Sequence record: PQ390715.1
Length of the DNA stretch: 64,000 nt
Direction: 5' to 3' (one strand)
From: Escherichia phage SHEFM2K
The notes under the pieces are model-generated. The model was given only the letters and a program-made list of their open reading frames with translations. It did not search any database and was not told where the DNA came from. The position numbers were made by a program, and so were the translations under genes. The first letter of the stretch is position 1, and every line of letters begins with the position of its first letter. Below are positions 40,193 through 40,226 of the stretch, piece by piece.

Positions 40193-40226
40193 AAAAAGGG
40201 CCGACCGAAGTCAACCCTTTTGTTTT
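40193..40226. terminator. Terminator/promoter cassette copy (GGGCCGACC-GAAG-TCAACCC; TTGACT -35 in stem, TGcTATAAT after T-run on minus strand)
   Basis: Hairpin with T-runs on both strands. Confidence 0.6.

Follow-up and report, generated by a model that had tools for sequence, protein, structure and literature searches.

The 64,000 nucleotides of Escherichia phage SHEFM2K analysed here (hereafter, the window) carry eleven copies of a compact cassette, all of them on the minus strand, which is the local coding strand. Each copy is best explained as a one-directional terminator-promoter of the PeSL (promoter-early stem-loop) type, serving the minus (coding) strand of an early-gene region and also acting as a recombination boundary, and the probability of this explanation is put at roughly 80%. 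The composite terminator-promoter and module-swap design is already known from the PeSLs of T4-type phages; it is less expected that one hairpin sequence recurs in unrelated phages and that a U·G wobble is strongly preferred to perfect pairing. The original prediction, made from the letters of the window, had proposed that a single element closes one transcription unit and opens the following one, and this part of it is supported by comparative sequence and by the match to the PeSL class, which was validated in T4-type phages. Its proposals of two-way termination and of the strand on which the tetraloop is read did not stand.

By megablast, the nearest relatives of the window are Asteriusvirus jumbo coliphages (121Q, PBECO4, phAPEC6, slurp01), and the best match is phage BAU.Micro_ELP-22 (ELP-22), with ~98% identity. 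GC skew and open reading frames divide the window into three gene blocks, two on the minus strand (1-16 kb and 36-64 kb) and one on the plus strand (16-36 kb), the latter with RCC1-like genes. By comparison with ELP-22, the minus-strand blocks hold mostly short hypothetical ORFs, together with a phage sigma factor, a protein kinase, DenV and homing/HNH endonucleases, and this gene content marks the region as early-type and ORFan-rich. All cassette copies lie within these minus-strand blocks of short hypothetical ORFs, a placement that agrees with the ORFan-rich hyperplastic early regions in which PeSLs are found. A tRNA scan of the window found no tRNA, and a search of the whole window with all Rfam families at the gathering threshold gave no match.

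Anatomy and placement of the cassette

Read on the minus strand, the cassette is a unit of ~40 bp composed of an A-run, the hairpin GGGTTGAC-UUCG-GUCAGCCC, a T-run, TGnTATAAT, a Shine-Dalgarno sequence (SD) and an ATG. In DNA letters the order is A-run, GG(G)TTGAC, TTCG, GTCAGCC(C), T-run and TGnTATAAT, and the -35 hexamer, TTGACT, is made of the 5' stem arm and the first base of the loop. The hairpin is GC-based, as had been predicted, and folds at -16.8 to -19.5 kcal/mol, with z values of -4.6 to -6.0 against shuffled sequences; T-runs were likewise found to flank it on both strands. The GAAG/GAAA tetraloop that had been proposed is a mis-parse of the plus strand, where the loop is CGAA, that is, the canonical C(UUCG)G of the minus strand.

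With the consensus of the original prediction, and allowing up to 3 mismatches, 9 copies were found against 0.00 expected from 100 shuffles. The minus-strand core GGTTGACTTCGGTCAGCC, searched with up to 4 substitutions, recovered all 11 copies within the window and 0 in the opposite orientation, which confirms the predicted count of eleven (Table 1). Ten of the eleven ranges first assigned were right, and the remaining one, 2711-2741, lay ~20 nt off the element (~2723-2762). A looser search of the window, with up to 6 errors, gave no additional family member. Its sole extra hit is a related plain terminator, GGGTTGGC-TTAT-GCCAACC followed by a T-run, at 62432-62450 on the minus strand, which lies just past the phage sigma factor gene (62458-63423) and has no -10.

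The cassettes are tightly placed with respect to the neighbouring genes. The stop codon of the upstream ORF lies 7-16 nt before the core in 8 copies, and in the copy with core 53972-53989 the TGA within TTGAC is itself the annotated stop codon of the upstream ORF. Directly behind the stem, 8 copies have at least 4 T, and the copies with cores 2736-2753, 16-33 and 50730-50747 only 3. A -35 hexamer followed at 17-18 nt by a -10, as had been read earlier, is present in 10 of the 11 copies, the exception being the copy with core 48928-48945; the TG said to be frequent stands at -15/-14 in 8 of the 11. In typical window copies, the SD and ATG follow 24-30 nt past the -10.

Table 1. Cassette copies in the window, in descending order of position
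Feature	Extent	Strand	Core	Hairpin and T-run	-10 and spacer	Context
Cassette	53958..53997	-	53972-53989	A-run, hairpin, T-run	TG, TATAAT, spacer 18	ATG 28 nt past the -10
Cassette	50716..50755	-	50730-50747	UAAG loop	TATCAT, spacer 18	Upstream edge of variable slot
Cassette	50534..50572	-	50547-50564		TATACT, spacer 17	Downstream edge of variable slot; before 517-aa ORF
Half cassette	48918..48953	-	48928-48945	Hairpin, 7-T run	No acceptable -10 (TGTAAA)	Probably a terminator only
Cassette	47829..47868	-	47843-47860		TG, TATGAT, spacer 18	Before protein-kinase homologue
Cassette	42831..42873	-	42845-42862	UUCA loop, two U·G wobbles	TG, TATAAT	Before denV
Cassette	41906..41945	-	41920-41937	-18.9 kcal/mol	TG, TATAAT	Upstream edge of 1.67-kb module
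Cassette	40185..40226	-	40199-40216	Two U·G wobbles	TG, TATAAT, spacer 18	Downstream edge of homing-endonuclease module
Cassette	6399..6438	-	6412-6429		TG, TATTAT, spacer 17	Further promoter-like sites stacked downstream
Cassette variant	2723..2762	-	2736-2753	Extra A-U stem pair, UCCG loop, T-run of 3 T	TATTAT, spacer 17	
Cassette variant	3..42	-	16-33	-35 TTGATT, extra A-U pair	TATTAT, spacer 17	-10 near window edge

Strand-specific hairpin and promoter half

Every copy in the window has at least one U·G wobble in its minus-strand RNA, which corresponds to a C·A mismatch on the plus strand, and the plus-strand fold is weaker by 1.8-6.3 kcal/mol with long flanks and by 4.4-9.5 kcal/mol with short flanks. 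In 113 distinct phage copies, the non-Watson-Crick cells of the stem, read on the coding strand, comprise 117 G·T, 10 A·C and 4 others, a split that would be expected neither of a double-stranded protein site nor of a two-way terminator. Judged from these copies, the stem is kept by selection for pairing in the coding-strand RNA. Since the phage copies had been gathered with a G-containing seed, ascertainment bias towards the wobble was checked by unbiased scans of both perfectly paired variants of the 18-mer. In viral contigs, the form with the U·G wobble (GGTTGAC…GTCAGCC) gave 56 exact matches, the form with a T-A pair, in which the -35 is kept (…GTCAACC), gave 5, and the form with a C-G pair, in which the -35 is destroyed (GGCTGAC…), gave 14, which are scattered and have a -10 in 1 of 14. 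The wobble form thus outnumbers the symmetric T-A form 11-fold, whereas selection for two-way termination would favour the symmetric one. The wobble may weaken the mirror-image -35 on the other strand. In the copies with cores 2736-2753 and 16-33, an extra A-U pair on both arms goes together with a T-run cut to 3 T and a spacer of still 17, so that stem and promoter spacing are preserved together and the U-run pays for the insertion.

The promoter half was evaluated by comparing phage copies with bacterial sites that carry the identical 18-mer. A scan of 596 Gb of bacterial sequence gave 50 matches to the 18-mer, of which 19 passed the A-run/T-run filter as single-copy terminator-like sites, the others being mostly GC-rich sequence with no A/T runs. 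A -10 (at least 4 of 6 positions, with A2 and T6) stands at 17-18 bp in 108 of 118 phage copies (92%) vs 2 of the 19 bacterial terminator-type copies, and TG at -15/-14 in 90 of 118 (76%) vs 0 of 19 (0%). In the phage copies the start codon lies mostly 20-35 nt past the -10, and the A-run is conserved in their consensus. The contrast in -10 and TG makes the promoter an extra constraint seen in phages, and on this comparative evidence the promoter half is selected, not accidental.

The window also holds a second class of promoter, with ~20 TTGACA-16/17-TATAAT sites that have no terminator hairpin (examples on the minus strand, by the start of the -35: 60074, 55760, 44718, 5869, 5287, 3485 and 2175); the cassette is therefore a class apart, for places at which one unit has to stop and another to start. 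Many of the hairpin-less promoters have AGTACTG directly upstream of the -10, and in those at 8406, 5558 and 1747 copies of AGTACT flank the -35 and can pair (-13 kcal/mol). This palindromic hexamer is the commonest in the window, with 277 copies vs 22.9 +/- 4.8 expected under a Markov-1 model, and is densest in 1-21000. It occurs 121 times in the non-coding 24% of the window and otherwise within ORFs, in all frames, and is often preceded by C and followed by G (CAGTACTG); a literature search found no explanation for its abundance. Long leaders (122-281 nt) follow the cassettes with cores 2736-2753 and 6412-6429, at 2460-2730 and 6230-6400 on the minus strand; they combine small GC hairpins (GGGGAACG...CCCC) with a stack of promoter-like sites and with the conserved motif CAGCCCACAGGGTGCATAAATGTATCTATTATAT. 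This motif was also found downstream of cassettes in four other phage contigs.

These data bear directly on what else the element could be. A terminator that also stops plus-strand (antisense) transcription, as was originally predicted, would fit the T-runs on both sides of the hairpin and a plus-strand RNA that still folds at -11.6 to -17.1 kcal/mol with long flanks. The two strands are nevertheless not equally stable, given at least one plus-strand C·A mismatch in every copy, and the form that is rare is the symmetric one, whose T-A pair would improve the plus-strand fold with the -35 intact. All copies lie between co-directional minus-strand ORFs, 0 between convergent genes, and these blocks contain 0 plus-strand genes; the upstream A-run is otherwise explained as an UP-like element, as the stop-codon region or as an extension of the stem. 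With orientation, mismatches and the 56 vs 5 counts of the two forms all contrary, two-way termination was given up as unlikely, and weak termination on the plus strand may be physically possible. On the transcribed strand, the element has the GC-rich stem, short loop and directly 3' U-run of a rho-independent terminator. It could then be supposed that the cassette is a plain intrinsic terminator and nothing else, its -35/-10 match being a by-product of the AT-rich tail, and database records and the CBB paper indeed name the cassette hairpins solely as terminators, the identical 18-mer is an ordinary terminator in some bacteria, and the half cassette has no -10. This is very unlikely in view of the fixed-spacing -10 and the TG that separate phage from bacterial copies, of the SD and ATG at 20-35 nt, and of the longer stems that are paired with shorter T-runs while the spacer is preserved.

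The stem sequence is conserved beyond what pairing alone requires, a point in favour of a DNA palindrome that would work with no RNA terminator at all, either as the operator of a dimeric regulator (FNR/CRP-type TTGAC-N4-GTCAA, or a phage repressor) or as an N4-style hairpin promoter. TTGAC-N4-GTCA(G) is similar to FNR-family boxes, and a text search of the literature for the cassette sequence returned only one site, the exact TTGACttcgGTCAA, which is a predicted FnrL site in Rhodobacter (PMC2908626). A double-stranded site would not be expected to show the strand asymmetry of the non-Watson-Crick cells (117 G·T vs 10 A·C), and the second half-site is usually broken, reading GTCAG in 96 of 113 copies. 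The centre of the palindrome lies at ~-29.5, by a hand count of positions, rather than at the -41.5 of activation, a T-run always follows, and the cassette is also present in Brochothrix phage A9, whose host is Gram-positive. The whole proposal is thereby most improbable. An FNR box was rejected on position, broken half-site and strand asymmetry, the symmetric TTGAY-N4-RTCAA form not being that of the cassette, and an N4-type DNA-hairpin promoter was rejected in favour of the simpler reading, with which the T-run and the full sigma-70 consensus with TG agree. A selfish repeat of the REP/MITE kind was also considered and rejected, since function constrains the position and orientation of the cassette as well as its -10 and SD.

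Cassettes at the edges of variable modules

The region 36.5-57.5 kb of the window was compared with ELP-22, UE-S1, ECO103, vB_Ec-M-J, WPEC3, UB and 121Q. The comparison gave 15 distinct indel/replacement events, 6 of them with an edge within 25 bp of a cassette; a few false gaps produced by greedy chaining of BLAST pieces (e.g. ELP-22 42399..38968) were excluded from this list. Three segments that are missing in UE-S1 (window 50719..50578, 48922..47877 and 41897..40227) have both edges in neighbouring cassettes, with an alignment overlap of 41-52 bp. Base-level inspection of UE-S1 at 48922..47877 and 41897..40227 revealed a single chimeric cassette, whose upstream flank is that of the upstream copy and whose downstream flank is that of the downstream copy. 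With the three UE-S1 events, the window shares with PeSLs the element-bounded indels that leave a chimeric copy. The occurrence of at least three two-edge cassette events has P = 0.007 in a null model with edges snapped to gene junctions, all three of these clean cassette-to-cassette events coming from one genome comparison (UE-S1). The association of any edge with a cassette (6/15) is not significant under this conservative null (P = 0.13), edge-cassette associations being very strong against a uniform null, and several indels lie far from any cassette.

Two cassette-bounded intervals vary between genomes. The slot between the cassettes with cores 50730-50747 and 50547-50564 occurs in four alleles (0, ~140, 730 and 843 bp), and the 1.67-kb module bounded by the cassettes 41906..41945 and 40185..40226 contains a 77-aa ORF and a homing endonuclease. 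The homing endonuclease ORF (474 aa, 40225-41649) lies directly upstream of the cassette with core 40199-40216 and is absent or replaced in 121Q, UB and UE-S1, and in several relatives an HNH endonuclease gene is inserted 70-77 bp upstream of the cassette with core 42845-42862. A segment of 413 bp with a 137-aa ORF (46706-47120) is present in the window and absent from ELP-22, 121Q, UB and UE-S1; its breakpoints are clean and away from cassettes. In RaK2, CBB and other more distant genera, homology to denV and two other genes starts at the cassette, and denV is conserved as a pair with its cassette (42831..42873) in RaK2 and CBB.

A mechanism can be proposed on the basis of the one-directional terminator-promoter. 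Polymerase arriving from the upstream gene would transcribe GGGUUGAC-UUCG-GUCAGCCC and the U-run, a standard intrinsic terminator, so that the transcript would most likely end within the spacer/-10 region of the next promoter. The same DNA bases would form a sigma-70-type promoter, with the A-run as an UP-like element, TTGACT as the -35, the 3' arm and T-run filling the 17-18 bp spacer, and then TGnTATAAT; restart would most likely take place ~7 nt past the -10, giving a ~20-nt leader with SD. Since the cassettes agree almost fully with one another over ~40-75 bp, they could act as direct repeats, and recombination between them would delete, insert or swap the gene modules that they flank. An 18-bp spacer is suboptimal, which is a counterpoint to the composite function. 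We infer from the sequence and from the analogy with PeSLs that termination and initiation would actually occur at the cassettes, and the holoenzyme used and the mechanism of recombination are deduced in the same way. Use of the host sigma-70 at the cassettes is only assumed, given that the phage encodes its own sigma factor.

Distribution and relation to known elements

Outside the window, blastn found the cassette in 174 phage records. Rak2-, GAP32-, CBB-, BF- and Yen9-04-type jumbo phages, KVP40-like Vibrio phages and Aeromonas T4-likes are among these phages, as are CR3/CR8/CR9 and Brochothrix phage A9, and nearly all retain the full layout of A-run, hairpin, T-run, TG-10 and SD. The complete contig of 121Q has 7 exact copies, all in the region homologous to the window. 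The 18-mer is not specific to phages and is also found in bacterial genomes, which makes convergence possible. Several Acinetobacter and Exiguobacterium species carry the identical 18-mer hairpin, including the U·G wobble, as a single-copy terminator at chromosomal loci that are apparently orthologous; the bacterial loci include five in Acinetobacter, three in Exiguobacterium and one in Bdellovibrio, the last with TATTAT at the spacing of the cassette.

The recurrence across phages may reflect either horizontal spread or convergence, and once TTGAC is required as the 5' arm, what is known of terminators and promoters dictates most of the remaining positions. A further suggestion, which we hold to be doubtful, is that the cassette forms a portable unit for regulation and recombination, which large lytic phages of unrelated groups share or have invented again and again, and which offers a common docking site for the exchange of gene cassettes. 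Rak2-like jumbo phages, KVP40-like phages, Aeromonas T4-likes, CR3-type phages, T5-sized contigs and Brochothrix A9 could all belong to such a network. Were this so, the near-fixed U·G wobble would be kept to disable either a mirror-image -35 (antisense promoter) or a host FNR-type site, both of which a perfect palindrome would create.

The one-directional terminator-promoter finds its closest counterpart in the PeSLs, which were defined in RB49/phi1, where they were shown to act as promoters and terminators, to be enriched in hyperplastic regions, to bound indels and to give rise to mini-circles (Arbiol et al., 2010; PMC2839356), and were later extended to PST/T4 and nt-1/KVP40 (Comeau et al., 2014; PMC4122927). 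These studies describe PeSLs with a stem-loop that overlaps the -35 or lies between the boxes, tested activities and PeSL-mediated shuffling (PMC2839356, PMC4122927). The likeness of the cassette extends to the intergenic AT-rich upstream part, the sigma-70-like -35/-10, the stem-loop that would end upstream transcription, the SD and the ATG, to the subclasses in which the stem-loop overlaps the -35 or lies between the boxes, to G-T pairs, to ORFan-rich hyperplastic early regions, and to bounded indels and replacements with chimeric copies. In the window, 10 of 11 copies have a sigma-70-like promoter, and the stable stem-loop overlaps the -35 and fills the spacer; as far as sequence can tell, the cassette agrees with PeSLs on every point tested. 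The differences are that the phage is an Asteriusvirus (Rak2-like jumbo) and not a classical T4-like, that one nearly invariant UUCG hairpin takes the place of varied polyG/polyC stems in five positions, that the whole terminator is nested inside the promoter, and that the same cassette, known here from sequence, recurs across many phage groups.

Rho-independent terminators of the canonical kind, with C(UUCG)G tetraloops, occur in E. coli and T4. The cassette resembles them in its GC-based stem of 8-12 bp, UUCG loop, U-run and location just past a stop codon; it differs in a stem that must spell the -35, in a U-run for which the promoter spacer leaves room for 3-7 T, and in a -10 placed directly behind that run. 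Lambdoid morons, in which a gene is flanked by a promoter and terminator of its own, are likewise small accessory units with their own transcription signals (PMC2839356). Those signals do not recur as conserved repeats and are not believed to bring about exchange, whereas the cassette repeats are the junctions. The idea of a physical coupling between the termination site of one unit and the initiation site of its neighbour is also put forward for bacteria, as promoter-terminator coupling (bioRxiv 10.64898/2026.08.19.745784).

Annotation has so far recorded one half of the element. Terminator features of the ARNold type cover the cassette hairpins in the GAP32, G17 and UE-S1 records, and the supplement of the CBB paper includes the hairpins in its terminator table and has none of them among its 18 RpoD-like promoters (PMC5259590); as these sources list the sites only as terminators, promoters are being missed. 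A literature search on 121Q, PBECO4, RaK2 and phAPEC6 found no description of the cassette as a composite element. The CBB promoter Porf_41 (AAAAAGGAGTTGACAACAGTTGGCTCCTTTGCTATACT, 15,759-15,796; PMC5259590) also appears, from hand pairing, to be embedded in a hairpin, with a different, G·U-rich stem, and the nested design may thus not depend on one stem sequence.

The compact nested design could provide a ready-made insulating part for synthetic biology, and the preference for U·G over a perfect pair poses a small puzzle on the avoidance of antisense promoters. For the phage itself, the cassettes furnish a simple transcription map for part of a genome of 350-380 kb, where hardly any early gene has a known function: most probably, one short unit ends at each cassette and another begins there. 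The cassettes likewise mark the sites at which gene modules, homing endonuclease genes included, are gained and lost.
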